Counted from the stretch's first letter, positions 1-15,288 are shown. The stretch is DNA of 24,833 nt from a virus (UHGV-0067666); one strand, 5' to 3'. Numbers and translations are program-made. Notes: generated by a model from the sequence alone, not told the origin.

Positions 1-9
1 TTAGCAAGG

Positions 10-29
10 TTGTGTACATTTGTACACAA
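10..29. promoter_or_regulatory. Perfect inverted repeat TTGTGTACA-tt-TGTACACAA upstream of the TetR-family gene; candidate autoregulatory operator
   Basis: 9-bp arms with 2-bp spacer seen directly, ~20 bp upstream of the ATG at 50; TetR regulators commonly bind palindromes in their own promoters. Confidence 0.45.
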
Positions 30-49
30 TTGCAGAGAGAGGAAATGAC

Positions 50-586
50 ATGCGTCGCGCTAACGATCCGCAACGGCGAGAAAAAATTATCCAGGCCACG
101 CTGGAGGCGGTGAAACTTTACGGAATACATGCTGTTACGCACCGCAAAATTGCTACCCTTGCCGGGGTACCGTTGGGATCGATGACCTACTATTTTTCAG
201 GAATTGATGAGTTGTTGCTGGAGGCGTTCAGCAGTTTTACTGAGATTATGTCCCGGCAATATCAGGCATTTTTTAGCGATGTTAGTGATGCTCAAGGCGC
301 ATGCCAGGCTATCACCGATATGATCTACAGCTCACAGGTTGCAACGCCGGATAATATGGAGCTGATGTACCAGCTCTACGCGCTGGCTAGCCGAAAACCG
401 CTATTAAAAACGGTAATGCAAAACTGGATGCAGCGCAGTCAGCAAACGCTCGAACAATGGTTTGAACCCGGAACCGCCCGCGCGCTTGATGCGTTTATTG
501 AGGGGATGACGCTGCATTTTGTCACCGACCGTAAGCCGCTATCGCGCGAGGAGATTTTGAGGATGGTTGAGAGGGTTGCAGGGTAG
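50..586 (+). CDS. rcdA: TetR-family transcriptional regulator (host gene, RcdA/YbjK-like)
   Basis: ORF 20..586 trimmed to ATG at 50 behind GAGAGAGG RBS; N-terminal HTH region typical of TetR proteins; sequence recalled as E. coli YbjK/RcdA, symbol from memory only. Confidence 0.8.
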
Positions 587-603
587 TAGATAAATTTTAG
601 ATA

Positions 604-631
604 ACAAAAAACCCATTTATGTAAATGGGTT
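604..631 (-). terminator. Rho-independent terminator on minus strand (hairpin AACCCATTTA/TAAATGGGTT followed by T-run on minus strand)
   Basis: Perfect 10-bp inverted repeat at 610..631 with A6 at 604..609 on plus strand (U-run on minus); downstream of the minus-strand 89-aa gene and integrase. Confidence 0.5.
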
Positions 632-637
632 AATGAA

Positions 638-669
638 AACAATAAGTTAGATTAAAAACAATAAGTTAG
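638..669. repeat. Direct repeat AACAATAAGTTAG x2 (638..650 and 657..669) in the host-prophage junction; candidate integrase arm or att-associated site
   Basis: Two identical 13-mers 19 bp apart seen directly, between host gene end and prophage genes. Confidence 0.4.
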
Positions 670-736
670 GTTGGTGGTCAGTGGTGGTTATTACGGGGTA
701 ATGCCAACCGCTGCCGCCACTTTGTCGCCACTTGTT

Positions 737-1006
737 TTACCTTAGACGCCAGGGGCCTCTATCTTCAATCTGTTCGACTAACCCCTCCTCTTCTAGTTCA
801 CGCAATAGTGCAACAACCCAATATTGTTGGTTCGAACTTGTTGCTTTCCGTTTTTCTCCCCAATCGAGGCCGCTTAGACGAAATACCTCAGCTTGCTTAA
901 CGCCGTTGCCGTTTTTTTGGGCATCTGGGTGAGTTTTAAGTACGGATAAAGCCAATTCTTTGGCTCTGTTGCGCAATTCCGCTCCCTGATGCTGAAACTT
1001 ATTCAT
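737..1006 (-). CDS. Hypothetical 89-aa protein downstream of integrase (possible winged-helix protein)
   Basis: ORF with GGAG RBS 9 nt upstream of ATG; co-directional with int; no family recognised with confidence. Confidence 0.55.
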   Translation of the reverse strand: MNKFQHQGAELRNRAKELALSVLKTHPDAQKNGNGVKQAEVFRLSGLDWGEKRKATSSNQQYWVVALLRELEEEGLVEQIEDRGPWRLR

Positions 1007-1064
1007 TGATAGTGCTCCATGTGAAAAAAAAGAATATTAGCTCAACAGGGCAAAATACGCATTT

Positions 1065-2096
1065 TCAAAAACTTGCTATTGATGTTGGTAGTGTTGCCAG
1101 CGGATTAAACCGTAATGCAGTTTCCAGGTGATCCGGTGCCAGATGTGCGTAACGCATAGTCATTTTTATATCGTGGTGTCCGAGAATTTTTTGTAAGGCC
1201 AGAATGTTTCCACCCGACATCATGAAGTGCGCCGCAAACGTATGGCGCAGAACGTGTGTCAGTTGACCGCGAGGGAGCACGATAGACGTTTTTTCCATCA
1301 CGGATAAAAATTGAAAATAGCAGTCTGTAAAGAAATTGAACCCATCAAGCGCCATGATCTCTTCGTAAAGCTCTTTACTGATAGGGATGCTTCTGTTTTT
1401 CTTCCCCTTCGTTCTTACAAAGGTAATTCGGTATTTGGTCACCTGTGAGCGGGTAAGATTTACGGCTTCACGCCAACGTGCGCCTGTGCTTAAGCATATC
1501 TTAACTACCAGTGCCAGAATTGGGTCCTGACGTTTGCAATCAGCCAGCAATTCAACAATCTGCTCATGGGTAAGCCATGCCATCTCTTTTTCTGCGATGG
1601 TGAATTTTCGCATGTTCTCCAGTGGGTTCGGATACGACCATTCGCCCAGACGGGATAGTTCGCTAAAAACACTACTTAGATAGCTTTGCTCCAGGTTAAT
1701 GGTGACCGGGCTTGCTCCTTTCTTCCATTTCTCGCTGAAGTAGATCTCGCCTGTCAGGCGTTTATCTCGATAGTGGGCAAACATTTTAGAGGTGAGATCG
1801 GTTGCAAGAGGATTGCCCAGAGCGTCAACCATCAACAGCAATTTGTCATAGACATGCTGCCCAGCTGTCAGAGATTTACCATGTAGTTTGAACCATAGTT
1901 CAACCACGTCTTTCAGTGTTCGACGATCCACTGATTCACCCAGCCAGGGCTTTGCTTCGGTTTCTTCCATCGTGTGGCGCTCAAAAGCCAGAGCTTCGCC
2001 TTTGGTGGCGAATTGTTTACGCACACGACGCCCACTACGTCCGGCGGGGTAACATTCGCAAAGCCATTTTCCTGTGGTGAGTTTTCGTACTGCCAT
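1065..2096 (-). CDS. int: Tyrosine site-specific integrase, P2/186 Int family
   Basis: ORF 1065..2174 trimmed to internal ATG (MAVRKLTTGKW...), matching the conserved P2-type Int N-terminus; C-terminal catalytic region with R...HxxR...Y pattern (LRHTFAAH, MRYAHL). Confidence 0.9.
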   Translation of the reverse strand: MAVRKLTTGKWLCECYPAGRSGRRVRKQFATKGEALAFERHTMEETEAKPWLGESVDRRTLKDVVELWFKLHGKSLTAGQHVYDKLLLMVDALGNPLATDLTSKMFAHYRDKRLTGEIYFSEKWKKGASPVTINLEQSYLSSVFSELSRLGEWSYPNPLENMRKFTIAEKEMAWLTHEQIVELLADCKRQDPILALVVKICLSTGARWREAVNLTRSQVTKYRITFVRTKGKKNRSIPISKELYEEIMALDGFNFFTDCYFQFLSVMEKTSIVLPRGQLTHVLRHTFAAHFMMSGGNILALQKILGHHDIKMTMRYAHLAPDHLETALRFNPLATLPTSIASF

Positions 2097-2282
2097 AAAA
2101 AATGCCCTCCAATAGAGAGCATTTTTACTGTATGTATAACCAGTGTCAATGTATGAAATCTTGCGACCATACATCTCACTGAAGCCATAATGAAGTTGGC
2201 TATTTTTTGCTATGTGAGTATGTAACTTTTGCGGTTAGCCTGCGGCTCATTGTTATATTAGGCGCAGATATAAAAGCAAAGT

Positions 2283-2474
2283 TTATCGTGATTTTTTAGT
2301 ACAGATTTTTTTGGATTTACTAATAGTTCCATCATTGCAAACAAATTTTCCATCGGAGGTACAGTGAGATACACCACCCTTTTTCCCAGAACAAGGATAA
2401 TTTTTAGCATAGGTAGTTAGTGGGCTTAATAACAAAGAGCATGATAAAACCACAAAAAATACTTTACCAAGCAT
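2283..2474 (-). CDS. Small secreted cationic cysteine-containing peptide (signal peptide plus ~40-aa Lys-rich mature region with 4 Cys)
   Basis: GGAGG RBS 8 nt upstream of ATG; N-terminal hydrophobic signal with AxA-like site (TYA-KN); AT-rich codon usage; lies between cI and int. Confidence 0.6.
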
Positions 2475-2489
2475 AGTTTCCTCCCGGTA

Positions 2490-3059
2490 TTATCTAACAT
2501 ATTTAACTGTTAAACTTATAATTTTTCCAATTATTTCAACATCTTCTATCTTGCAGTCGAAGGCTCTGTTTCCACCTTCAACGAAGATTCTTCCACCGGG
2601 TAAACGAGTAATGTCGCGGATTGTTATCTCGCCATCAATACTTATTACCCATTTACCATCACGTATATCATCAAATTCTTTATCACAAATAAATTCAGAA
2701 TTGTTATCTGTGATGACAAAAGGTTTTTTAAACGTAGAGGGTAGAAATCCCTTATCAAAAATATAAAAACCGTCTTCACGCAAGGCACCATCAGATAATA
2801 CATATTTAGCAACTTCCATAGTATTTGTATTACCTGAAGTTTGCTTTGAACCATGTCCAGTTGTGAGCCAATTAAGCGAGGTGCCCGTTTCAAGGGCGCA
2901 CTGGATTACCCATTCTGCTGGGAATGAGTCACGCATGTAGCGTGTGGCGAGTGTACTTTTAGAGATTCCTAAATGATCGCACAACGCCTGTCGAGTTTTG
3001 AATCCATAAGCTTCTACCATGCGCTCTATAGCGCCTCGTCCGCCTTTCTCCAAATTCAT
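2490..3059 (-). CDS. cI: Prophage repressor, phage 186 CI-like (N-terminal HTH, C-terminal oligomerisation domain)
   Basis: ATG at 3059 behind GGAG RBS; ~190 aa, HTH segment TRQALCDHLGISKSTLATRY; position between int and a divergent apl-like gene as in 186. Confidence 0.75.
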   Translation of the reverse strand: MNLEKGGRGAIERMVEAYGFKTRQALCDHLGISKSTLATRYMRDSFPAEWVIQCALETGTSLNWLTTGHGSKQTSGNTNTMEVAKYVLSDGALREDGFYIFDKGFLPSTFKKPFVITDNNSEFICDKEFDDIRDGKWVISIDGEITIRDITRLPGGRIFVEGGNRAFDCKIEDVEIIGKIISLTVKYVR

Positions 3060-3083
3060 GGTCACTCCAAGTGAACTTTTATC

Positions 3084-3112
3084 TTGACGATTTCACTGTG
3101 CGATCGTATGTT
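3084..3112 (+). promoter_or_regulatory. Putative rightward early promoter (TTGACG -17 bp- TATGTT) in the cI/apl divergent region
   Basis: Sigma70-like hexamers with 17-bp spacer seen directly; lies between the divergent repressor and excisionase-like genes. Confidence 0.35.
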
Positions 3113-3184
3113 TATGATGTTCACAAAATACAAACGATCCGTATTCGTCCTGATTAATCATCATTAAACGAGGAATGTTGCATC

Positions 3185-3406
3185 ATGAGACCTAACATTT
3201 CAATCACTCTTACCACGCCTCATGTGACTATTGAACGCTATAGCGAGCTGACAGGGCTGTCCATCGATACCATCAATGACATGTTGGCTGACGGACGCCT
3301 TATCCGTCACCGTCTGCGCAAAGATAAAAAACGCGAAAAAGTGATGATCAACATAGCAGCCATGACCGTTGATGCGCTTTCAGAATGCAATCTAAACCTT
3401 AATTAG
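3185..3406 (+). CDS. apl: Small HTH DNA-binding protein, Apl/Cox-like excisionase/repressor of lysogenic promoter
   Basis: 73-aa ORF divergent from cI, first gene of the rightward operon; HTH-like segment [18 protein letters not shown]; symbol assigned by position. Confidence 0.55.
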
Positions 3407-3438
3407 TTCGATTCTGAAATACATCAGAGGCATTGACC

Positions 3439-3948
3439 ATGTTTGATTACCAAGTTTCCAAACATCCACATTTTGATGAAGCCTGTCGTGCATTCGCACT
3501 GCGCCACAACCTGGTGCAACTGGCAGAACGTGCAGGCATGAATGTGCAGATTCTGCGGAACAAGCTGAACCCAGCTCAACCTCATTTATTAACCGCACCA
3601 GACATCTGGCTGCTTACCGATCTGACTGAGGACTCAACACTGGTAGATGGTTTTCTGGCACAGATTCATTGTCTGCCATGTGTTCCGATTAATGAGGTGG
3701 CAAAAGAGAAACTGCCGCATTACGTCATGAGTGCAACTGCAGAGATAGGACGTGTCGCGGCAGGTGCGGTTTCTGGCGATGTAAAAACCAGTGCAGGCCG
3801 TCGTGATGCGATCAGCAGCATTAACTCTGTAACACGACTGATGGCGCTGGCTGCTGTTTCATTGCAGGCCCGTTTACAGGCTAATCCTGCGATGGCGAGT
3901 GCAGTTGATACCGTGACTGGCCTCGGTGCTTCATTCGGTTTGCTGTGA
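3439..3948 (+). CDS. cII: CII-like lysogeny establishment activator (186 CII-like)
   Basis: ATG at 3439 behind AGAGG RBS; 169 aa; HTH near N-terminus; position directly after apl as in 186. Confidence 0.65.
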
Positions 3949-3955
3949 GGTGCTT

Positions 3956-4156
3956 ATGCTGACGAAAGAACCATCATTTGCATCGCTGCTGGTAAAACAA
4001 AGTCCGGCAATGCACTACGGTCACGGCTGGATCATGGGGGAGGATGGTAAACGCTGGCATCCGTGCCGTTCACAAGATGAATTGCTGGCAGAACTATCTA
4101 CGAAAAAACGGGGGAACAAATGGCTATTGAAGGCGCTGCGGCGACTGTTCCATTAA
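3956..4156 (+). CDS. Small early protein (Fil-position ORF)
   Basis: ATG at 3956 preceded by GAGG; ORF 3926..4156 in the track; function unknown. Confidence 0.4.
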   Translation: MLTKEPSFASLLVKQSPAMHYGHGWIMGEDGKRWHPCRSQDELLAELSTKKRGNKWLLKALRRLFH

Positions 4157-4461
4157 GCCCCGGTGAACGCCTGAGTGGACTTAATCACATAGCGGAATTA
4201 AGGGCAAAAGTTTTTGGCCTGAATATTGAGTCAGAGCTTGAGCGGTTTATTAAAGATATGCGTGATCCACGGGATATCAATAATGAACAAAATAAACGGG
4301 CACTGGCTGCTATATTCTTTATGGCAAAAATTCCGGCTGAACGTCATAGCATCAGCATTAATGAGCTGACCACTGACGAAAAGCGGGAGCTGATTAAAGC
4401 AATGAATCATTTTCGTGCAGTGGTGAGCTTATTTCCCAGACGGCTAACCATGCCGAATTAA
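4120..4461 (+). CDS. Hypothetical early protein, 113 aa
   Basis: ORF with ATG start, overlaps the 3' end of the previous ORF in another frame; no recognisable motif. Confidence 0.4.
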   Translation: MAIEGAAATVPLSPGERLSGLNHIAELRAKVFGLNIESELERFIKDMRDPRDINNEQNKRALAAIFFMAKIPAERHSISINELTTDEKRELIKAMNHFRAVVSLFPRRLTMPN

Positions 4462-4528
4462 CCAACTAATGAAATTAATGGCGTAAACCCGCCGGGCATC
4501 CCTTTATCTAAATTCAGGAGAATTGATT

Positions 4529-4762
4529 ATGCGTAATATTGAAACCCTCACGACTAAAACCGGACCGGATGACGCAGGGCTTAATATTTTACTGACAGAG
4601 GCTCGTCTGGAAGAACGCCGGGCAAGGGCTGAAGCAATGGCAGCTCGCCTTGATCGCCTGGCGTGTCATATCACATCCCGCCAGCTAAACCACGTCGAAG
4701 CGGCAGAACTGCTGCGTGTGACCGCTGAAGCAATCCAGAACGAAGCGCAGGAGATCCACTAA
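4529..4762 (+). CDS. Hypothetical early protein, 77 aa
   Basis: ATG at 4529 with AGGAG RBS 8 nt upstream; stop overlaps start of next gene (TAATG). Confidence 0.5.
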   Translation: MRNIETLTTKTGPDDAGLNILLTEARLEERRARAEAMAARLDRLACHITSRQLNHVEAAELLRVTAEAIQNEAQEIH

Positions 4763-4989
4763 TGGCTGATGCAATGGATCTCGTACAGCAGCGCGTTGAA
4801 GAAGAACGCCAGCGCCATATCCGTGCTGCCCGTGCCAAAACACCGGGCGTGTCTCGCGTGCTTTGTATTGAATGTGAAGCGCCAATTCCGCCAGCACGCC
4901 GCCGCGCCATTCTAGGAGTGCAGCTTTGCATTACCTGCCAGGAAATCGCAGAGCTGAAAGGTAAACATTACAACGGAGGTGCTGTATGA
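4762..4989 (+). CDS. TraR/DksA-family C4 zinc-finger protein
   Basis: CIECEAP...(17 aa)...CITCQ pattern (CxxC-x17-CxxC) in a 75-aa protein; translationally coupled to flanking genes. Confidence 0.7.
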   Translation: MADAMDLVQQRVEEERQRHIRAARAKTPGVSRVLCIECEAPIPPARRRAILGVQLCITCQEIAELKGKHYNGGAV

Positions 4990-5843
4990 GCACCATCCTG
5001 AAATGGGCGGGAAATAAAACCGCCATTATGTCCGAACTGAAAAAATACCTTCCTGCTGGCCCGCGACTGGTTGAACCTTTCGCGGGTTCTTGTGCTGTGA
5101 TGATGGCGACGGATTACCCCAGCTATCTGGTTGCGGATATTAATCCTGATTTAATCAACCTCTATAAAAAGATTGCCGCTGATTGCGAAGCGTTTATATC
5201 TCGTGCCAGAGTTTTATTTGAGGAAGCAAACAGTGAGCTGGCTTATTACAACATAAGACAGGAGTTTAATTACTCAACTGAAATTACTGATTTCATGAAG
5301 GCGATATATTTCCTGTATCTCAATCGTCACGGTTACCGTGGTTTATGTCGCTATAACAAGAGCGGGCATTTCAACATTCCCTACGGTAATTATAAAAATC
5401 CGTATTTCCCTGAAAAAGAAATTCGCGCATTTGCAGAGAAAGCCCCGCGGGCAACGTTTATCTGCGCGAGCTTTGATGAAACGCTGGCGATGTTGAAGGC
5501 GCGGGATGTGGTGTATTGCGATCCGCCTTATGACGGTACGTTTTCCGGCTATCACACTGATGGTTTCACTGAAGATGACCAGTATCACCTGGCATCCGTT
5601 CTTGAACATCGAGCATCTGAAGGACATCCGGTCATTGTTTCTAACAGTGACACATCCCTGATCCGTTCGCTGTATCGCAATTTCACTCACCACTACATCA
5701 AGGCAAAACGCAGCATCGGCGTGTCGGCTGGCGAGAGTAAATCTGCAACAGAAATCATTGCTGTTTCCGGGGCGCGCTGCTGGGTGGGATTTGATCCTTC
5801 GCGTGGCGTGGATAGTTCTGCTGTGTACGAGGTGCGTGTATGA
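4986..5843 (+). CDS. dam: DNA adenine methyltransferase, Dam-like (orphan N6-adenine MTase)
   Basis: N-terminal KWAGNK and EPFAGS motifs (AdoMet binding), catalytic DPPY motif; ATGA overlaps with both neighbours. Confidence 0.9.
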
Positions 5844-8260
5844 GTCATGCCGATATGAGCGACTCTAGCGGCTTTAACGAGGCCGCTGCAGCATTTTCAT
5901 GGAACGGCCCGAAAAAGGCCATTAACCCTTATCTGGACCCGGCGGAAGTTGCGCCGGTTTCTGCGCTTTCAAACCTGATCACTCTGTACGCTACCGATAA
6001 CGAGCAGGAACAACTGCGCCGCGAGGCACTGAGTGATCAGGTCTGGGAGCGTTATTTCTTTAATGAATCCCGTGATCCTGTCCAGCGCGAAATGGAGCAG
6101 GATAAGCTCATTAGCCGGGCAAAGTTGGCGCATGAGCAGCAGCGTTTTAACCCGGACATGGTCATTCTGGCAGACGTCAGCGCCCAGCCCTCCCATATCA
6201 GCAAGCCGCTGATGCAACGTATTGAATACTTCAGCAGCCTGGGCAGGCCAAAGGCTTATTCCCGCTATTTACGTGAGACGATTAAGCCATGTCTGGAACG
6301 ACTGGAGCATGTACGCGACAGCCAGCTATCTGCATCTTTTCGTTTTATGGCAAGCCATGTAGGGCTGGACGGCCTGCTGATTCTGCCTGAAATGAGTCAG
6401 GATCAGGTGAAACGCCTGTCTACCCTTGTCGCTGCGCATATGAGCATGTGCCTTGACGCAGCTTGTGGTGATTTGTATGCCACCGATGACGTTAAGCCAG
6501 AAGAAATCCGCAAGACATGGGAAAAGGTGGCAGCGGAAACCCTGCGTCTGGATGTCATCCCGCCTGCGTTTGAGCAACTCCGTCGGAAAAGAAACCGCCG
6601 TAAACCCGTGCCCTATGAACTCATTCCGGGTTCGCTGGCGCGTATGTTGTGCGCCGACTGGTGGTACCGGAAATTATGGAAAATGCGTTGCGAATGGCGG
6701 GAAGAGCAGTTGCGTGCTGTCTGCCTGGTCAGCAAAAAAGCATCTCCCTATGTCAGCTATGAAGCCGTGATGCATAAACGTGAGCAGCGCCGCAAGTCAC
6801 TGGAGTTTTTCCGTTCTCATGAACTGGTGAACGAAGAGGGCGACACGCTGGATATGGAAGACGTGGTAAACGCCAGCAGCAGCAACCCGGCGCACCGCCG
6901 CAATGAGATGATGGCCTGTGTTAAAGGTCTGGAGCTTATCGCGGAAATGCGCGGTGACTGCGCCGTTTTCTACACCATTACCTGTCCGTCACGTTTCCAT
7001 TCTACGCTCAATAACGGCAGACCAAACCCAACCTGGACAAATGCGACGGTAAGACAAAGCAGCGATTATCTGGTCGGCATGTTTGCTGCATTTCGTAAGG
7101 CGATGCACAAAGCCGGGTTGCGCTGGTATGGCGTGCGGGTGGCTGAGCCGCATCATGACGGTACAGTTCACTGGCACCTGTTGTGTTTCATGCGCAAAAA
7201 AGACCGCCGCGCCATTACTGCATTGTTGCGTAAGTTTGCCATCCGTGAAGACCGCGAGGAACTGGGTAATAACACTGGTCCACGCTTTAAATCTGAGCTG
7301 ATAAACCCGCGCAAAGGTACGCCAACAAGCTACATCGCGAAATACATCAGTAAGAACATTGACGGGCGTGGTCTGGCTGGCGAGATCAGCAAGGAAACGG
7401 GTAAATCCCTGCGTGATAACGCTGAATACGTTAATGCCTGGGCGTCTCTGCATCGTGTTCAGCAATTCCGCTTCTTTGGCATTCCGGGGCGTCAGGCTTA
7501 CCGTGAACTGCGATTGCTGGCTGGTCAGGCGGCAAGGCAGCAGGGTGACAAAAAAGTAGGTGCGCCGGTACTGGATAACCCGCGCCTTGATGCAATCCTG
7601 GCTGCTGCTGATGCTGGTTGTTTTGCCACCTACATCATGAAGCAGGGCGGCGTACTGGTTCCCCGCAAATATCACCTCATCAGAACTGCTTATGAAATCA
7701 ACGAAGAGCCGACCGCCTATGGCGATCACGGTATTCGTATTTATGGCATCTGGTCACCCATTGCAGAGGGCAAGATCTGCACTCATGCGGTGAAGTGGAA
7801 AATGGTTCGTAAGGCCGTTGACGTTCAGGAGGCGGCAGCCGACCAGGGCGCTTGCGCCCCTTGGACTCGGACTCGTGGCAATAACTGTCCCCTTGCTGAA
7901 AATTTGAACCAACAAGGGAAAGACAAATCAGCTGATGGGGATACCAGAACGGATATCACCCGCATGGATGACAAGGAGTTGCACGATTACCTGCACAGTA
8001 TGAGCAAAAAAGAGCGCCGGGAACTGGCAGCAAGATTACGCCTGGTTAAACCGAAACGGCGTAAAGACTACAAACAGCGAATTACAGAGTATCAGCGTCA
8101 GCAGCTCGTCTATGAACTGAAGTCCAGAGGATTTGATGGCAGCGAGAAAGAGGTCGATTTGCTCCTTCGCGGTGGCAGTATTCCGTCAGGAGCAGGCCTG
8201 CGTATCTTCTATCGGAACCAGCGTTTGCAGGAAGATGATAAGTGGCGGAACCTGTATTAA
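5840..8260 (+). CDS. A: Replication initiation protein A (rolling-circle nicking endonuclease, P2 gpA family)
   Basis: 806 aa; HWHLL metal-binding motif and YIAKYISKN tyrosine motif typical of P2 A-type initiators; position after early operon. Confidence 0.9.
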
Positions 8261-8352
8261 TCACGCGGGTTAACAATCCGTGCTCTTAATAATACCAGGC
8301 ATATCAGGCTGATGAACGTAAAAAAACGTTTTACATCAGTAAGATTATTATA

Positions 8353-8372
8353 TACTGTAAATATAAACAGTG
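8353..8372. promoter_or_regulatory. LexA (SOS) box TACTGTAAATATAAACAGTG
   Basis: CTG-N10-CAG with AT-rich centre, 17/20 match to consensus TACTGTATATATATACAGTA; overlaps a TATACT -10-like hexamer; sits ~40 bp upstream of the small ORF at 8414. Confidence 0.6.
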
Positions 8373-8413
8373 ATTATATATACAGTATTTCTTGTGGTGT
8401 CATAGGAGGAAAG

Positions 8414-8602
8414 ATGCAGGACTATTTTTTGGAGTCTTTGAAGCTCCAGCGCATTGATTTTTTTCTTAAGCTTGTAGCGGCTAGTGAGTGTAGTGATGAA
8501 GAGAAGGGGCTGGCTTTGCAGTGGGTTTCTGAACTAACAGATGAACTCATGGCAAAAATCAGAACCCACGAATACAACCGCTCAATGGATGTCATCAGTT
8601 GA
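8414..8602 (+). CDS. Small LexA-controlled protein (62 aa), candidate antirepressor (Tum-position gene)
   Basis: ATG at 8414 with AGGAGGA RBS; the longer TTG-initiated ORF 8312..8602 would include the promoter and LexA box. Confidence 0.5.
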   Translation: MQDYFLESLKLQRIDFFLKLVAASECSDEEKGLALQWVSELTDELMAKIRTHEYNRSMDVIS

Positions 8603-8612
8603 GGTGACTTTT

Positions 8613-8846
8613 ATGCGCATTGAAATAATGATCGATAAAGAGCAGAAGATTAGCCAGTCTACCCTGGACGCCCTTGAATCCGAGCTTTACCGTAATCTGC
8701 GCCCCCTGTATCCCAAAACGGTAATTCGTATCCGCAAAGGTAGCTCTAACGGTGTGGAACTGACCGGACTGCAACTGGACGAAGAAAGGAAGCAAGTGAT
8801 GAAAATTATGCAGAAGGTGTGGGAAGACGACAGCTGGCTGCATTAA
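8613..8846 (+). CDS. dinI: DinI-family protein (DNA-damage-inducible protein I homologue)
   Basis: 77 aa beginning MRIEIMIDKEQ with conserved DALESEL and C-terminal acidic W-containing tail, closely paralleling E. coli DinI (MRIEVTIAK...DALAGEL...WESADDWF); GAGG RBS. Confidence 0.8.
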   Translation: MRIEIMIDKEQKISQSTLDALESELYRNLRPLYPKTVIRIRKGSSNGVELTGLQLDEERKQVMKIMQKVWEDDSWLH

Positions 8847-8918
8847 GAAACGTTGCTGGCGTCTGAACTTGCTTCTGGCGTCAGCAAGGTTGAACAACGA
8901 GCTGTGCGAGGCGTTAGT

Positions 8919-8933
8919 TGATATAGTATCAAT
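8919..8933. promoter_or_regulatory. Perfect palindrome TTGATA-tag-TATCAA upstream of HNH gene; candidate operator or promoter element
   Basis: Seen directly, ~35 bp upstream of the ATG at 8969. Confidence 0.3.
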
Positions 8934-8968
8934 ATATAAAAGGTTTCTCGAAGTTTTAAGGTAAGGTT

Positions 8969-9688
8969 ATGACAACTATTAACAAGCATGGGTTATCTAG
9001 AACAATTCCTGAACCTGTAAAACTGGAGGTAAGGCAGCGCTGTGGCTTTGGTTGCGTTGTTTGTGCTTCTCCCATTGTTGAGTATGAGCATGTAATTCCC
9101 ACATACGCTGATGCAAAGGAGCACTCTCCAAATGCAATAGCACTACTTTGTCCTACGTGCCATGCGAAAGTAACGAAACGTCTTTACTCTAAAGAGAAAA
9201 TAATTAAAGCAATGGAATCTCCTGCAGCCTTACAAAAAGGGAATGTGGCCGATATATTGGACTTTTCTGATAGGCATCCAACAATAATATTTGGTGGTGC
9301 GACGTTTGAATCCTGTACTGTACCAATAATGTTTCAAAATGAGCCATTGTTAACCATTGAAAAAGAAAATAATGCTTTTCTTATTTCGGGTAAATTTTAC
9401 GATAGTCAAGGTATTGTTAATCTTGAATTAATTAAGAATGAGTGGGTTTGTAGTGCAAGGCATTGGGATGTTCAGGTTGTTGGTCCTAGAATAACTATTA
9501 TAGAAAAAAGGAAAGGTCCTCGTTTAATTATTAAAGTTGATGCGCCTGAAAGATTGATTGTGGAAAGATTAGATATGTTGGTTAAGGGGACTCGGATTGT
9601 AGGAGACGAACACAAGCTAAGAGTAGGTCCACATCAATTTCACAATTGTGGAGTTTCAAATTGCAATATTGGTTTCTGCTTTGGCTAA
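8969..9688 (+). CDS. HNH-endonuclease domain protein with uncharacterised C-terminal domain (~150 aa)
   Basis: N-terminal CGFGCVVC...EYEHVIP...NAIALLCPTCHAK, a CxxC...EH...N...CxxCH HNH signature; AT-rich codon usage unlike the neighbouring backbone. Confidence 0.7.
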   Translation: MTTINKHGLSRTIPEPVKLEVRQRCGFGCVVCASPIVEYEHVIPTYADAKEHSPNAIALLCPTCHAKVTKRLYSKEKIIKAMESPAALQKGNVADILDFSDRHPTIIFGGATFESCTVPIMFQNEPLLTIEKENNAFLISGKFYDSQGIVNLELIKNEWVCSARHWDVQVVGPRITIIEKRKGPRLIIKVDAPERLIVERLDMLVKGTRIVGDEHKLRVGPHQFHNCGVSNCNIGFCFG

Positions 9689-9801
9689 CTGGAGGTTGGA
9701 AAAAGACCATTTCCTGTAAGCTGAGTATTTCGTACATTTTTGCCAACGCATGTCTATGCCGCATGAAATCGCATGATCGTTTGAGGATCGTTTTTGCTGA
9801 T

Positions 9802-9829
9802 GCCCGCCAGAGCTGGCGGGCTTTTGCTT
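9802..9829 (+). terminator. Rho-independent terminator (GCCCGCCAG / CTGGCGGGC stem followed by TTTTGCTT)
   Basis: 9-bp GC-rich inverted repeat plus T-run seen directly, downstream of the HNH gene. Confidence 0.6.
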
Positions 9830-9870
9830 ATGTCATGCAGGTGCATGAAAACCACTACACAAAGCGGGCA

Positions 9871-9889
9871 GGCGTGGCGGGGATACGAG
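9871..9889. other. Candidate cos site (cohesive-end sequence) GGCGTGGCGGGGATACGAG
   Basis: From memory, P2/186 cohesive ends are 19-nt G-rich sequences beginning GGCG(A/T)GGCGGGGA; first 13 nt match that recollection; orientation relative to the portal gene matches P2. Confidence 0.35.
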
Positions 9890-9991
9890 CGCGCGCTAAC
9901 TCATAAATCCTAGATTATTAGTGGATTTATCTCATTGAAATGTGCACTATTCCCAGCATTGAGTTGTACCAGATGTCTTTATGGAGGGACT

Positions 9992-11758
9992 GTGGCTTTT
10001 GTAACTGATATTCGGCTTGAAGATAATGCTATTGCTGCACCTGCGACAGCACAGGTTATGGCTCAGAGGCTAGGATCTGTATTACGTAAGAGATATGAAG
10101 AATTCATCCATAAAAGAGAGTGTGCACCAGGCCAAGCAGACTATGATGTAAAAATGGCTAGCAGGGCTTTAGCTGCATTCACTATGTATCAGTTAGGATG
10201 TGTGGATGATAAGTATGCAGGGGAGTCTGTATGTGATAGTAGTGAAGATGGTGGTATAGATGGAATAGCAATCAACCATAACGAAAAAATCGTTGTTGTT
10301 GTTCAATCAAAATTTCACCAATCGGGAAACGGCACTTGGACAAGAGCCGATTTTATGTGTTTTAAGGATGCTTGTGAGAAGCTACAAAGTGAAAGATACG
10401 AATTATTTGATTCCATATTGCAAAATAAAAGCGGGGAAATAAGTGCGGCTTTAAGTAGTTTTGAATACAAGTTCATCTTTGCGATGGCGCATACAGGTAA
10501 AAAAGGTGCTGCAGAGGAAATATTAAATGATATGCGGGAATGGCAATATCAATTAAACGCTGCAGCTTTTACACCTGAGGATGAGCCTAAAGAGAACTGG
10601 GGATTTCAGGTTCATTTAATATCCTCTGAAGATATGATGCATTGGTTACAGAATGGCTCTCGAAATCAAATTGATCTTAACAGGGTTGAAATTGAGCGTT
10701 TTGGATTTTTGAATGAACCATATCAAGCTTTTTACGGGGCTATTAGTGGTGATCAAGTTGCAGAATGGTGGGAAGAGCATGGTGCTCGATTATTTACAAA
10801 AAACATAAGGAATATGCTTGGTAAAACAGAAGTGAATGAGGAAATAAAAAAGACAGCTATAGATAATCCTGATATGTTTTGGTTTTATAATAATGGGATT
10901 ACTGTACTGGTTAAGGAAGTTGTTCCTCATAGACGAAACGCAGCTCCTAATATAGAGAGAGGGATTTTTGATTTTCGTGATGTAAGTGTCATTAATGGTG
11001 CACAAACAGTCAGTAGTATTGGCGCATGTAAAGATGCGCTTGGTGAAAACATATATAGACTCAAAGTGCCAGCTAGATTCATTGTTATAGATGATGATAC
11101 TGATAATTTAACTGCAAATGCAATTACAAAAGCTAACAATTTCCAAAATAGAGTATTGGGAAGAGATTTTGCATCGCAGCAGGCAGATCAACATAGATTG
11201 GCAAGGGAGTTAGTGCTTGAAGGATATCAATATCAGTTACTAAGAACAGATGAAGATCATTCACAGACAAATACGAAAGTCATTGACTTGGATGAGGCGC
11301 TCAATGCACTCGCATGTTTAAGTAAAAATAATACGGTTGTATCGACACTAAAATCAAATCGCGGTAGGTTTTTTGAAAATTTTGAAGGCTCTCTATATAA
11401 AACTATTTTCAATCCAAGATTAAGTGGTTTAAAACTTATCAATACTGTTCTACATTTTAGAGTTATAGATAAGTTGATCGGTAAAACATTACTATCAGTA
11501 GATAAAACGACCCATAGTCGCAAGCATTTAATTATTACGCATGGTAATAGATACTATGCGTCTGTACTATTGAGCAACGTTTCTGGGATACATAATAGCT
11601 CAGAAATTCTTGTTCCAGATGAAAAAAATCTTTCCGAAGAATTAAGTGCATTAATTCAACGTGCTGAAGAGTACATTGAAGATAATTACCCGAATGCCTA
11701 TCCGGCAAGATTTTTTGCAAATCCAACGAAAATACAAGAGTTATACGATAATGTTTAA
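9992..11758 (+). CDS. AIPR-like (abortive infection phage resistance family) protein with N-terminal PD-(D/E)xK-like nuclease motif
   Basis: ORF 9935..11758 (TTG); likely start GTG 9992 behind GGAGGG, or ATG 10058; motif DGGIDGIAINHNEKIVVVVQSKF resembles a D...(E/Q)xK nuclease core; later NGITVL and INGAQT motifs recalled as AIPR-typical; AT-rich. Confidence 0.65.
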   Translation: MAFVTDIRLEDNAIAAPATAQVMAQRLGSVLRKRYEEFIHKRECAPGQADYDVKMASRALAAFTMYQLGCVDDKYAGESVCDSSEDGGIDGIAINHNEKIVVVVQSKFHQSGNGTWTRADFMCFKDACEKLQSERYELFDSILQNKSGEISAALSSFEYKFIFAMAHTGKKGAAEEILNDMREWQYQLNAAAFTPEDEPKENWGFQVHLISSEDMMHWLQNGSRNQIDLNRVEIERFGFLNEPYQAFYGAISGDQVAEWWEEHGARLFTKNIRNMLGKTEVNEEIKKTAIDNPDMFWFYNNGITVLVKEVVPHRRNAAPNIERGIFDFRDVSVINGAQTVSSIGACKDALGENIYRLKVPARFIVIDDDTDNLTANAITKANNFQNRVLGRDFASQQADQHRLARELVLEGYQYQLLRTDEDHSQTNTKVIDLDEALNALACLSKNNTVVSTLKSNRGRFFENFEGSLYKTIFNPRLSGLKLINTVLHFRVIDKLIGKTLLSVDKTTHSRKHLIITHGNRYYASVLLSNVSGIHNSSEILVPDEKNLSEELSALIQRAEEYIEDNYPNAYPARFFANPTKIQELYDNV

Positions 11759-11761
11759 ACT

Positions 11762-11788
11762 AAAGGGAGGTTGCCTCCCTTTTTTTTA
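11762..11788 (+). terminator. Rho-independent terminator (AAAGGGAGG-ttg-CCTCCC + T8)
   Basis: 6-bp GC stem, 3-nt loop, run of 8 T, immediately after the stop of the AIPR-like gene and abutting the 3' end of the convergent portal gene. Confidence 0.75.
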
Positions 11789-11789
11789 A

Positions 11790-12818
11790 TTAGAAATGGT
11801 ATTCTTGGAATTCAATAACACCTTCTTCTATGAAATTGTTTATTTCTTGTAATCTTTTTTGCAATGGCAATAATTCATTACGTACAAATACTTTACTCGC
11901 CTTCTCTACATCTCCAAAGCCCCCAACATTATTAGGCATTATCCCCATCATTTGCGGCGGCACACGGTGTGCCGCCATCATGTCGTCCCGACTCACGTTC
12001 TTGATATTCAGAAACTCATCCTTCGCCGCGACTTCTGACAACGGGATAATCTGAAGCCCGTCCTTTTTGCCGTTAGGAGAGTACATAAACAGGTTGCGGA
12101 AGTTGCCTGGCCCTTTGGCGCTTTTCATTGCGTTGCGGAGGTTGTTCACATCTTCTTGGTTCTGCGCGGCATCGGTCATGTACATGATGAAACCTGCATG
12201 GCTGCCGTTGATGTAATACTTACGGCGGAACAGTGTGGCGGACTCGTTGAGCAGGGCTGACGGGATGGCAGAAAGATAACCTGGCAGGCCGTAGATCTCC
12301 TGGTTGATGTCCGGTTCCATCAGATGAAAAATGCTGCCTTTCGTGAACTGATACGGCTGGGCTGTCATACCGTATTGCACAAACCAGTAGGTATCCAGGT
12401 CTAATCCGCGTCGGGTGTATTTTGCCAAAGCTGGCTCAAGGGCGATAACTTCACCAAAGCGGTTCGTGCGTTTCTCCAGGTAGGCGTTACCAAATACCAG
12501 ATAGTCCTGCACAAAACGCGAAAAAGCCTGCTGGCTAAGCAGCGGATGAGGGATATAGGTACTGGTCAGAATGTTGCACTTTACTGCAATCGGGGAACTG
12601 TGATGCACGGCGGCGCGGAAGGTGCGCGCCAGTCCATTAAAGCTGACGGGCGGCTCATACCAGCGATCCATCTGTACGCATTCCACATAGTCCAGCAGTT
12701 CGCGGCGGTCCAGCACGGGGATGGGATCACCAAAGCTGAAAGCCTCAGCCGTTGGGCCGTTGCTTGGTTTTGTGTCGTGATCAACTGTTACCTGCTTGGT
12801 GTTTTTACGTTTGCTCAT
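11790..12818 (-). CDS. Q: Portal protein (P2 gpQ family)
   Basis: 342 aa, size and position as P2 Q, immediately downstream of terminase-region genes on minus strand; start ATG overlaps stop of upstream ORF (ATGA). Confidence 0.8.
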   Translation of the reverse strand: MSKRKNTKQVTVDHDTKPSNGPTAEAFSFGDPIPVLDRRELLDYVECVQMDRWYEPPVSFNGLARTFRAAVHHSSPIAVKCNILTSTYIPHPLLSQQAFSRFVQDYLVFGNAYLEKRTNRFGEVIALEPALAKYTRRGLDLDTYWFVQYGMTAQPYQFTKGSIFHLMEPDINQEIYGLPGYLSAIPSALLNESATLFRRKYYINGSHAGFIMYMTDAAQNQEDVNNLRNAMKSAKGPGNFRNLFMYSPNGKKDGLQIIPLSEVAAKDEFLNIKNVSRDDMMAAHRVPPQMMGIMPNNVGGFGDVEKASKVFVRNELLPLQKRLQEINNFIEEGVIEFQEYHF

Positions 12819-13522
12819 TCTGCCAGTTCCTTGCTAGCGAGAGGCCATTCGCACATAAACAGCATTTTCCAGTCCTCTTCTGATAATTCTTTTTTCATAT
12901 CGTTCAGCCAGTTATCAGTAAACAACATTGCTCCAGATGCTGCTGCGTCATCTGCGGTGAACACCATGCTGGTTACGCTGTTGTTTCTGCATAGCTTTTT
13001 ATATTCCTGCCGTGCCTCTGGGTTAGGGCTGGGAGTGGTGTAGTAGGTGGCGTGGTAGTGTGCGTGCATAGAAATCCCTTTAGCGATGGCAATCATATTT
13101 CTCGGTGATTCACTCCAGGCATACTCTGACACGTAAACATTTCCACTGAGTGCGGAGGTGAGACTGCTGAGGTCGGTAAAATAAATTACTGCACCATTCG
13201 GAAGCTCCAGATGACTTTTGCCTGATTTTATTTTTCCAGTGTGCGTATAAGCTGCGGCCTGGCTTAAGAATGCTGATACACAGGCTTTGATTGCCTGCGC
13301 AGATGCTGTGCTGCAGCAGAGGAAAATCTGGTTACGCCCGGTATGCAGTGCATCGTTCAGGGCTTCATAGGAAAAAAAGAAATCCGCGCCTGCCTGGCGC
13401 ATTTTTGTGAGTACACGGTTTCTACTCTTTGGGCCAGTGTTCCACTCATACTGGTAAGCAAAGAAAAAGCTATCCACCGGAAGTCCCGCGATAGTCATGA
13501 GGTTAGTTGGGATTGGGGGCAT
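12815..13522 (-). CDS. Terminase large-subunit ATPase-domain paralogue (235 aa), extra gene between P and Q
   Basis: Aligns to the central region of the adjacent 588-aa terminase (e.g. FFFSYEALNDALHTGRNQIFLCCSTAS vs FYFAREALIDALLTGRNQIFLSASKAQ; GNVYVSEYAW vs GNLYLDEYFW; YYTTPS vs YFSTPS); GGAG RBS; start overlaps P stop (TGATG) and stop overlaps Q start (ATGA). Confidence 0.7.
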   Translation of the reverse strand: MPPIPTNLMTIAGLPVDSFFFAYQYEWNTGPKSRNRVLTKMRQAGADFFFSYEALNDALHTGRNQIFLCCSTASAQAIKACVSAFLSQAAAYTHTGKIKSGKSHLELPNGAVIYFTDLSSLTSALSGNVYVSEYAWSESPRNMIAIAKGISMHAHYHATYYTTPSPNPEARQEYKKLCRNNSVTSMVFTADDAAASGAMLFTDNWLNDMKKELSEEDWKMLFMCEWPLASKELAE

Positions 13523-15288
13523 CAAAAAATCTCCACAATATTGCTGGTATTGGCGGATTCGCCCTGCAGCGGTTCGTTAAACAGTGCGTGCATCGTTGCC
13601 CAGGCCAGATCGGCGTGGCTGGCTTCTTCGCTGCGGCTGGCTTCATAGGTTGGGCGGTTGCCGCTCGCGGTGGTGGCGCGACGGATTGCCATGAATGACT
13701 GCGCTATGTCGGTGTGTCCGGCGTCAAACTCCAGACGGCGGTGGCTGATAATGTCGTAGGCCTTGAGTACCAGGGCGTTTTTAACATTGGGGTTATAGAC
13801 AAACTCCCGGACGGCTGGAAAAAACGCTTTCACGTTCTCGTAAACCCCGTGGCCGACACCTGTCGAGTCGATGCCGATGTAGGTCACGTTGTACTGCTCG
13901 GTCAGTTTTTTGATGGCGTCAGCCTGGGCGCGGAAGTCCATCCCACGCCACTGGTGACGCTCAAGAATGCGGAACTTACCACCAGGCACGGCTGGCGGTG
14001 CCACCACTACGCATCCGGCGCTGTCGCCGTTTTGCGTACCTTTTGCCGGGTCATAACCGATCCACACTTCGCGCCAGCCAAACGGGCGCAGAGCCAGTGC
14101 ATGAAAGTCGGTCCAGACTTCCCAGCTGTCCACCATGCACGCCTGCAGCTCGCTGAGCGGGAACACGGACGCGAGATCGTCCACAAACTCGCACATCAGC
14201 AGGTTCTGGTATTCGTCCGGGCTGTACTCCATGCGCAACTGGTCAAGGTCGAACAGGTTACAGCCGCCGCGCACCGCATCTTCCACGGTGACTATCTGGC
14301 GGTATTGCCCGTCTGCGCACAGCAGGCCGGGGGCCAGATTGCTGTGGGACAGGTCGATGTCCACCTTGTCGGCCTTGTTGCGCCCACGGTTGAACAGCGC
14401 ACCGGACCAGAACGGATAAGCACTGTGTGTCAGGCTGGATGGCGTGGAAAAATAGGTTTGTCGCCATTTTTTGTGAATAGCCATACCGGAAGCCACTTTG
14501 CGCAGCTCCTGGAATTTCGGTATCCAGAAATATTCATCCAGATACAGGTTGCCGTGATAACTCTGGGCCGTGCGGGCATTGGTGCCGAGGAAGTAAAGCG
14601 TGGCTCCGTTAGGAAGCACCATCGGATCGCCTTTCAGCTCCACCTCGACTTCTTTGGCGAAGTCTATGATGTACTGCTTAAAGACGTGAGCCTGTGCCTT
14701 ACTGGCAGAAAGGAAAATCTGGTTACGTCCGGTAAGCAGGGCGTCAATCAGGGCTTCACGGGCAAAGTAAAAGGTCGCGCCGATCTGGCGTGACTTCAGC
14801 AGGTTGCGGATGCGGTTGGTTTTTCCGGCTTCCCACCAGTGGCGCTGGTAGTTGAACATGGAGGAATGGAAAATTTCTTCCAGCTTCTCAATCTGTTCAT
14901 CGGTGAAAACATTCTTTTCCGGCTGACGGCGCGGGCCTTTGTTGCGGTTGGCGACGTTAGGGTTTAAGTCGGCTTCGTTACCGCCATTGTTAAACTTGCC
15001 GATCCGCGCGTGGCGCTCCGACTGGCGCGCCAGCAGGTCAATTTCTTTGAAATCTTTCCCTTCTTTGTGCTCCTTCATAATGAGCTGGCAGTAGCGTGCG
15101 GCGGTGGTGAGCTGCATCTGATCCAGCGGCCCATAGTCACCCCACTTGTCGCGTTTTTTCCAGCTGTGAACGGTTGCAACTTTCTCGCCCAGCATTTCAG
15201 CAATGCGGGCTACGCGGTATCCCTGAAAGTACAGCAGCATGGCCTGCCGACGGGGATCGAGATCTGCGGGTGTCAGTGTGGTGTTCAT
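13522..15288 (-). CDS. P: Terminase large subunit (ATPase/nuclease, P2 gpP family)
   Basis: 588 aa, size as P2 P; ATPase-like core with hhhhDE motif LYLDEY; divergent from the scaffold operon as in P2. Confidence 0.9.
   Translation of the reverse strand: MNTTLTPADLDPRRQAMLLYFQGYRVARIAEMLGEKVATVHSWKKRDKWGDYGPLDQMQLTTAARYCQLIMKEHKEGKDFKEIDLLARQSERHARIGKFNNGGNEADLNPNVANRNKGPRRQPEKNVFTDEQIEKLEEIFHSSMFNYQRHWWEAGKTNRIRNLLKSRQIGATFYFAREALIDALLTGRNQIFLSASKAQAHVFKQYIIDFAKEVEVELKGDPMVLPNGATLYFLGTNARTAQSYHGNLYLDEYFWIPKFQELRKVASGMAIHKKWRQTYFSTPSSLTHSAYPFWSGALFNRGRNKADKVDIDLSHSNLAPGLLCADGQYRQIVTVEDAVRGGCNLFDLDQLRMEYSPDEYQNLLMCEFVDDLASVFPLSELQACMVDSWEVWTDFHALALRPFGWREVWIGYDPAKGTQNGDSAGCVVVAPPAVPGGKFRILERHQWRGMDFRAQADAIKKLTEQYNVTYIGIDSTGVGHGVYENVKAFFPAVREFVYNPNVKNALVLKAYDIISHRRLEFDAGHTDIAQSFMAIRRATTASGNRPTYEASRSEEASHADLAWATMHALFNEPLQGESANTSNIVEIF

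Follow-up and report, generated by a model that had tools for sequence, protein, structure and literature searches.

Results

Layout of the Interval between Gene A and Portal Gene Q

UHGV-0067666, a viral DNA of 24,833 nucleotides (nt) analyzed here over its full length (the window), contains the left portion of a Fels-2/186-type prophage of the P2 family, as judged from gene order and profile searches. The window carries a host TetR-family gene, an integrase, a 186-type CI repressor, CII, a Dam methylase and gene A, followed by the interval that is our subject (8261-11789), the portal gene Q, the terminase gene P and then capsid and tail genes, an order that is P2/186-like overall. An initial annotation of this DNA had placed the interval between replication gene A and portal gene Q, and the profile matches of the two flanking genes bear this out. 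Boundaries were determined by blastn against nine relatives, and ten sequences entered the alignment of the cos region; the elements are as follows, with profile-search values in brackets.

5840-8260, plus strand: replication endonuclease gene A, the left conserved anchor (Pfam Phage_GPA, 2.1e-127)
8261-8917, plus strand: conserved backbone with a LexA promoter, orf62, a DinI/TumB-like gene and a downstream hairpin
8918-9747, plus strand: cassette of cargo slot 1, 830 base pairs (bp), guanine-plus-cytosine (G+C) content 0.373 (blastn boundaries)
8969-9688, plus strand: HNH nuclease gene, 239 amino acids (aa) (Pfam HNH, 2.4e-5)
9748-9896, no strand: cos island, the candidate packaging-site region, conserved, G+C 0.564 (aligned to the SEN8 and P2 termini)
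9802-9821, plus strand: conserved, terminator-like hairpin within the cos island, rich in G+C and with a T-run after it (terminator scan; -20.1 kcal/mol, z = -3.7)
9871-9889, plus strand: 19-nt cohesive-end sequence GGCGTGGCGGGGATACGAG, identical to SEN8 bases 1-19
9897 to about 11835, plus strand: cassette of cargo slot 2, G+C 0.363, spanning the AIPR gene, its shared terminator and ~45 nt at the 3' end of Q
9992-11758, plus strand: gene for an AbiU1/AIPR-family protein, 588 aa, GTG start (Pfam AIPR, 7.3e-35)
11762-11782, no strand: hairpin terminator common to the AIPR gene (plus) and the P-Q operon (minus) (-15.5 kcal/mol, z = -3.4)
11790-12818, minus strand: portal gene Q, the right anchor (Pfam Phage_portal, 3e-17)

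Gene A is 95-98% identical to its relatives at the nt level. Slot 1 is replaced by 8-9 bp, between identical flanks, in three relatives (L001, L011 and L012) and in the isolated phage MLG42. On the other side of the cos island, homology to the relatives ends 7-8 bp right of the cohesive end, at the same point in all ten aligned sequences, and does not restart before 11834-11857, which lies within Q, about 45 nt from its 3' end.

Two Cargo Slots Assort Independently

The backbone is present in 1,269 of 5,426 complete E. coli genomes, with flanks 90-99% identical, and at least 80% of the interval is covered in one of these 1,269. In the annotated rows sampled, the cargoes at the locus are of dozens of kinds, including TIR, PIN, DarTG (DarT-macro), retrons and DprA-PRTase, with GmrSD, KAP NTPase, HEPN, DUF4145, DUF2971 and ComF as further examples. 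The HNH cassette (8918-9747) recurs in 21 of the 5,426 genomes at an identity of at least 98.9%, and the AIPR cassette (9897-11789) in 12, at an identity of at least 99.6%. Each has changing partners. At least six kinds occupy slot 2 beside the HNH cassette (PIN, TIR, DUF4145, several hypotheticals and a diverged AIPR), and four kinds occupy slot 1 beside the AIPR cassette (DUF2971, ComF with a hypothetical, DarT-macro, and an AAA-ATPase with an HNH). The two cassettes occur together in none of the genomes, with ~0.2 expected under independence.

These partnerships bear on the idea that HNH and AIPR form one two-gene system, the G+C-rich island being merely embedded in a single larger one. The two genes are adjacent, on the same strand and similar in composition, and in E. 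coli PSS-11 this HNH is accompanied by an AIPR allele that has diverged (76% protein identity). However, the partner is something other than AIPR in 20 of the 21 HNH carriers, and this HNH cassette is absent from all 12 carriers of this AIPR allele. Furthermore, a terminator-like hairpin and the cos site separate the two genes, which lie at opposite DNA ends in the virion. We consider a single two-gene system highly improbable and read HNH and AIPR as separate cargoes.

A search of the cassette borders for target-site duplications, terminal repeats and ends resembling attachment (att) sites or insertion sequences (IS) returned short chance matches only, and transposition or integrase insertion was rejected on this negative result. 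The initial annotation had proposed at least two independent cargo insertions, one on each side of a cos-like sequence. Two independent units, one per side of cos, are indeed what we find, with an empty slot 1 in relatives and cassettes that reassort; the word insertion fares less well, since borders without flanking repeats are better read as cassette replacement. Nor is the interval conserved as a whole: the alignment of relatives resolves it into anchors and variable slots.

Base Composition Sets the Cargoes Apart

The G+C content of 8261-11789 is 0.389, versus 0.527 for the rest of the window minus the variable slots. Relative to backbone windows of equal length, slot 1 lies at z = -2.9 and slot 2 (9897-11835) at z = -3.2, and G+C at third codon positions (GC3) is 0.27 in the HNH gene and 0.26 in the AIPR gene versus 0.57-0.70 in A, Q and P. 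The 149-bp cos island departs from the cargo composition with a binomial P of 7e-7, the highest G+C of any 149-nt window within either cargo being 0.483. A second near-backbone block comprises orf62 and the DinI-like gene (8414-8917, G+C 0.47); the conserved LexA promoter segment is AT-rich (0.33). Segmentation on composition alone places outer boundaries at 8270 (G = 128) and 11954 (G = 78) and does not resolve the short inner islands. Composition is far from uniform, and both G+C and GC3 agree with the mosaic that the initial annotation described. Its G+C-rich island at 9760-9900 is refined here to 9748-9896, and its AT-rich blocks divide into the HNH and AIPR genes, which are cargo, and the LexA-box promoter, which is AT-rich but belongs to the conserved backbone.

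Low G+C might instead reflect local function, as in promoters or H-NS-silenced regulatory DNA, with relatives differing by deletions of an ancestral block. The AT-richness of the LexA promoter segment, which is conserved, would fit this, as would a report of AT-rich immunity loci as H-NS targets. But the low G+C spans 2.5 kb of coding sequence with a GC3 of ~0.26, and other prophages hold unrelated genes, not deletions, at the same coordinates, a pattern of replacement that contradicts loss from an ancestral block. The cassettes, moreover, keep ~99-100% identity in backbones that are 3-10% different from one another. A purely local origin of the low G+C therefore has next to no credibility for us, and we regard the two AT-rich blocks as acquired cargo.

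A Conserved cos Island between the Slots

The cos island is 90-97% identical in 88 phage records (phages of Klebsiella, Salmonella, Yersinia and E. coli). Bases 1-19 of Salmonella phage SEN8, which carry the annotation "putative cos site", equal window 9871-9889 at 19/19 positions, and the match extends to the final base of the SEN8 record, which corresponds to window 9870. The termini of P2 also align, with 14/19 bases of the cohesive end matching P2 cosL, and the end is identical in all ten sequences compared. As in cos sites of the P2/186 family, a 19-nt G+C-rich end lies inside a conserved flank of ~125 bp, here across the 88 records. The initial annotation had called the island conserved phage backbone and had pointed to a cos-like sequence, and both descriptions agree with these comparisons. 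By its alignments, island 9748-9896 is identified as the putative cos packaging site, and its 149 bp would be conserved because the terminase must recognize and cut them. The hairpin at 9802-9821, ~50 nt left of the cohesive end, retains its stem among relatives while its loop varies; it could terminate rightward transcripts before cos, act as a packaging recognition element, or do both.

A Crossover in the cos Core

Two relatives share the two halves of the window. Relative to E. coli NCTC9064, there are 0 mismatches from ~8000 to 9895 and a 3-4% difference further left, and the slot 2 cargo of NCTC9064 differs from that of the window. Relative to ARL09/232, ~16 differences lie within the cos island, all left of ~9843; there are none from ~9843 to ~12000 and ~6 over 10000-15100, and the slot 1 cargo of ARL09/232 is a different one. 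On these comparisons the window is a recombinant, with an NCTC9064-like left and an ARL09/232-like right. The crossover would fall within 9843-9896, since the left part matches NCTC9064 and all ARL09/232 differences in the island lie left of ~9843. This stretch is a 54-bp core, invariant in all relatives, that contains the cohesive end, and a crossover there fits cohesive-end seeding and ordinary homologous recombination equally well.

Exchange driven by the cohesive ends was put forward as a speculation by Rousset et al. (PMC9122126). Linear genomes of two different P2-like phages, either cut by terminase or freshly injected, would anneal by their identical 19-nt ends, so that the right end of one phage (with slot 1) joins the left end of another (with slot 2), and a second, ordinary crossover elsewhere would resolve the hybrid. 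The crossover indeed maps to the stretch that holds the cohesive end, whose identity in 10/10 sequences such annealing would use, and the second breakpoint, near 8000 inside gene A, resembles an ordinary homologous crossover. However, a 54-bp stretch invariant in all relatives is also where ordinary homologous recombination would resolve, and the breakpoint cannot be read from sequence more finely than these 54 bp. One recombinant is an anecdote, and slot 2 has its right boundaries within Q, distant from cos. We regard cohesive-end-driven exchange as possible, though the less probable course, and retain recombination in the flanking anchors as the general explanation.

The HNH Cargo

The HNH protein is 100% identical to WP_000207842.1, the annotated HNH protein of NCTC9064 and PSS-11, and belongs to a family of ~240 residues spread across Proteobacteria. 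In its high-confidence structural model (predicted local distance difference test, pLDDT, 93.6), the N-terminal part is an HNH domain of the Cys4-zinc type and the C-terminal part an all-beta domain. The predicted HNH domain resembles those of Cap5, McrA and IscB and has the catalytic His, the Cys4 zinc site and the HNH fold, with catalytic and zinc residues invariant; the all-beta domain gave no match in the PDB. PDB sequence searches with the HNH, AIPR and X families (gene X is described below) returned no significant match, and neither PADLOC nor NCBIfam assigned a family to HNH. Homologues of ~40% identity are solitary accessory genes in other prophages. The model suggests that the protein is probably a nuclease effector fused to a sensor or regulator domain, and the gene is most likely a defense gene.

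HNH proteins with other roles have to be considered at this position. The gene could be packaging-associated, like the HNH protein that helps terminase in cos phages of the HK97 type, or it could be a self-spreading, free-standing homing endonuclease. Its distance to the cos island is 60 bp, its cassette is near-identical in 21 otherwise diverged prophages, and its carriers have a left-hand cos-island haplotype in common, as co-conversion would produce. An HNH domain with an extra C-terminal domain is also a common layout of homing endonucleases. A packaging role is unlikely because nearly all relatives lack the gene: the cassette is present in just 21 of the ~1,269 prophages with this backbone and is missing from MLG42, which forms plaques (PMC11126057). 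Packaging HNH proteins of the HK97 gp74 type are distinguished by presence throughout their phage group, unlike the gene here, and the 40%-identical relatives adjoin replication genes of lambdoid prophages, not terminases. Against homing stands the locus itself, an experimentally validated defense hotspot (PMC9122126). These two roles, taken together, seem to us unlikely, and we keep defense cargo as the preferred assignment.

The AIPR Cargo

ARL09/232 encodes an annotated AIPR protein, WP_021542068.1, to which the AIPR protein of the window is 100% identical, and the GTG start at 9992 agrees with the RefSeq annotation of that protein. The window's AIPR protein covers positions 1-305 of 308 in the Pfam AIPR profile (PF10592) and near the full length of the PADLOC AbiU profile (6.3e-25; residues 77-563 on profile positions 45-512 of 537); it also matches phrog_1841 at 7e-173. 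On inspection, the segment ...DGGIDGIAI...VVVVQSKF... is compatible with a D...(E/Q)xK motif, and an N-terminal nuclease followed by a C-terminal AIPR domain is predicted. Identity with MzaE of the MZA system was rejected because the protein reaches 58 bits, in a partial match, against a cut-off of 1050.

The AbiU1/AIPR family is one of abortive-infection proteins; AbiU is a predicted nuclease, and lactococcal AbiU delays phage transcription (PMC3506569, PMC13064643, PMC13099982). AbiU has been found in P2 and P4 elements (PMC13586616). A side observation concerns Fels-2 (L003), whose slot 2 protein STM2723.1 (5905-7602) is annotated as hypothetical and is distantly related to the AIPR protein of the window (22.6% identity over 319 aa, E = 5e-9).

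The LexA-Controlled Segment Right of Gene A

The segment between gene A and slot 1 contains the following features.

8355-8370, plus strand: LexA (SOS) box CTGTAAATATAAACAG, of the pattern CTGT-N8-ACAG
8414-8602, plus strand: orf62, a conserved small protein (phrog_698, 3.6e-38), annotated in all relatives
8613-8846, plus strand: DinI-like (TumB-like) gene (Pfam DinI, 1.3e-22; phrog_189, 1.5e-29)

Because homology is unbroken from gene A to 8917 (over 5801-8917 in six of eight relatives by blastn), the block of LexA promoter, orf62 and DinI-like gene is backbone and not cargo. Across 11 loci, the orf62 protein is 84-100% and the DinI-like protein 82-100% identical; orf62 received no family in PADLOC or NCBIfam. 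The box is the sole CTGT-N8-ACAG match within the window (chance expectation 0.35). A LexA box in the promoter together with a DinI-like product are the marks of a LexA-regulated tum/DinI operon, and the Fels-2 annotation of the DinI-like gene remarks on its similarity to PSP3 TumB. By analogy with 186 Tum, we take the DinI-like protein to be a putative antirepressor.

A conserved hairpin (8853-8887) stands directly 3' of the DinI-like gene. It lacks a U-tract, and plus-strand cargo in slot 1 may therefore receive read-through from the LexA promoter; the HNH gene may in this way be reached from an SOS-inducible promoter.

Portal Ends and a Third Variable Slot

The core of Q (11836-12749) is conserved and near-invariant, while protein alignment shows the C-terminal ~25 aa and the N-terminal ~22 aa to be hypervariable, corresponding to window 11790-11860 and 12750-12818. 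Recombination boundaries therefore lie inside an essential portal gene, and the portal tail appears to come in a separate version with each neighboring cassette. Beyond Q lie the following features.

12750-13519, minus strand: third variable slot, lying between P and Q (G+C 0.479); most relatives lack it
12815-13522, minus strand: gene X, 235 aa, a stand-alone paralog of the terminase ATPase domain (Terminase_6N, 3.7e-16)
13522-15288, minus strand: terminase large subunit gene P, from the list of open reading frames (97% nt identity to relatives)

The start of X overlaps the stop of P (TGATG) and its stop overlaps the start of Q (ATGA), giving a coupled order P, X, Q. The protein is 32% identical to residues 142-368 of the phage's own P, and its AlphaFold2 (AF2) model resembles TerL ATPase domains (Foldseek template modeling, TM, score 0.65-0.72). 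X is a large terminase by its fold but not by the canonical Walker residues or the nuclease domain, and the N-terminal DNA-binding part is likewise absent. Walker positions were assigned by alignment to P and by analogy to T4 gp17. In nearly all of 24 aligned family members, the end of Walker A changes from ...GAT to ...GAD and Walker B from LDE to VSE, and the substituted residues are the metal-binding positions of canonical terminases.

The family (225-241 aa) occurs in Escherichia, Citrobacter, Salmonella, Klebsiella, Leclercia, Pantoea, Yersinia and Buttiauxella, with the order P-X-Q in every distant member examined (Yersinia, Pantoea and Buttiauxella). Among 1,160 E. coli genomes with this P-Q junction, 21 have X, which is not linked to the AIPR cassette. 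X is present in MLG42, although the paper on that phage does not mention it. Relative to MLG42, the ratio of nonsynonymous to synonymous substitution rates (dN/dS) is 0.23, indicating purifying selection, and dN of X is ~5 times that of P. X was assigned no family by PADLOC or NCBIfam, and the literature searched holds no description of a terminase paralog between P and Q.

As a guess, X might be a packaging accessory or a conflict factor. A scheme in which the cos-proximal region exceeds published descriptions in size and structure and comprises three slots, with exchange of the first two seeded at the cohesive end and the third providing X as a conflict factor, strikes us as doubtful. Were it true, X could act during packaging, for example by hindering satellites or competing P2-like phages that make use of the motor, or by drawing away host sensors for terminase. 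X is the sole element of the region for which no description was found in the literature searched.

Prophage Setting

The nearest phage records are of Felsduovirus and related Peduoviridae from Klebsiella, Salmonella, Escherichia and Yersinia. The far left of the window holds one further feature of the gene order.

1065-2174, minus strand: integrase

The CI repressor gene occupies 2490-3065 on the minus strand, and a second AT-rich patch lies at 2401-2800 (G+C 0.34). Divergence from NCTC9064 is greatest in this immunity region, with 53 mismatches in 250 bp (3250-3499), which suggests that the region is another mosaic module.

Two database records deserve comment. Over 1-8500 of the related record Escherichia phage 500465-1 (L015, NC_049342.1), gene A carries IS21/IS100 insertions, the portal is split and the X gene is truncated; because of these lesions the record resembles a decaying prophage, not a viable phage. 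In the record of Yersinia phage MLG42 (L013/L014, PP599993.1), marked "circular", ~114 bp of the portal gene seem to match both ends, and a short terminal redundancy left by assembly is probably present in the record. The portal gene is not listed in the retrieved stretches of this record.

Discussion

The interval 8261-11789 is very probably a cos-proximal accessory-gene hotspot of a Fels-2/186-type P2-family prophage, in which conserved anchors alternate with replaceable slots. In order these are gene A with the LexA promoter, orf62 and the DinI-like gene; slot 1 (HNH); the cos island; slot 2 (AIPR); and portal gene Q. In linear virion DNA the two slots would form the two chromosome ends. 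Whole cassettes would be exchanged between related phages through recombination in the flanking anchors, without a transposase or integrase, and the slots assort independently because whole cassettes are swapped in this way. The AT-rich, horizontally acquired cargoes would most likely serve the lysogen as anti-phage nucleases. The data show the anatomy with its boundaries, the conservation, the reassortment, the recombinant origin of the present copy and the family assignments, whereas protection against phages, the triggering of the cargoes and the enzymes of the exchange are parts of this account that we infer.

Several points count against this account. The partner census comprises ~100 annotated rows out of 1,274 records. 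Expression of the cargoes in the lysogen finds no support in a promoter scan of 8200-12000, which returned 12 sites versus 11.9 expected, and because this is the chance level we claim no cargo promoter. Protection by lactococcal AbiU is modest (PMC13064643), and the likeness of the AIPR protein to it is at the level of the family. HNH has no significant match in PADLOC, the best being mREase_IV (E = 0.0095) on the HNH motif only, and the gene could equally be a selfish homing nuclease.

The locus is ordinary and already described, and the two-slot anatomy is a refinement, not a discovery. Among phage hotspots the gpA-gpQ locus, which adjoins cos, is one of the best studied, and its anti-phage role has been validated (Rousset 2022, PMC9122126), with 1,650 arrangements in 18,150 loci and several validated systems, and both cargo accessions, WP_000207842.1 and WP_021542068.1, are in Table S5A of that work. 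Later studies reported very rapid cargo swapping and an automatic rediscovery of the hotspot. Our finding mainly confirms that P2-family prophages keep a replaceable anti-phage arsenal next to cos. What it adds are base-level boundaries of two independently assorting slots and a natural recombinant whose apparent crossover in the 54-bp cos core bears on how hotspot cargo comes to be exchanged so rapidly. The HNH plus beta-domain family, of ~240 aa and widespread in prophages, is a compact defense candidate.

Comparison with Known Systems

The individual genes have relatives of known kinds. The HNH domain is similar, in its model, to those of HNH effector nucleases such as Cap5 of the cyclic oligonucleotide-based antiphage signaling system (CBASS) and the McrA-type type IV restriction enzymes. 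Lactococcus AbiU (Dai 2001; PF10592; "AbiU" in PADLOC and DefenseFinder) is, like the AIPR protein, a single-gene system with an AIPR domain, and the match is near full-length, although similarity is at family level only. X has its ATPase fold in common with P2 gpP, T4 gp17 and P74-26 TerL, from which it differs as an ATPase domain alone with altered Walker motifs. The LexA-controlled segment resembles 186 tum and PSP3 tumB in that a DinI-like gene preceded by a LexA box stands where the early region ends on the right, just before cos; unlike these, the operon here is split into orf62 and a 77-aa DinI-like protein.

As a whole, the interval agrees with the gpA-gpQ (tin/old, "TO") hotspot of P2-like phages (Odegrip 2006; Rousset 2022, PMC9122126; PMC13586616; bioRxiv 10.1101/2024.10.15.618418) in position, hypervariability and kinds of cargo: it lies between A and Q, both slots abut the 149-bp cos island, and the content is hypervariable between conserved flanks. 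In P2 itself, tin and old both precede cos on its A side, and the Q side measures only 167 bp; the AIPR slot therefore has no counterpart in P2. The initial annotation's equation of the interval with that of P2 tin and old is correct for the A-Q interval as a whole and, strictly, applies to slot 1 only. Published work treats the gpA-gpQ hotspot as one locus, whereas here two slots surround the cos island and the orf62/DinI operon stays fixed.

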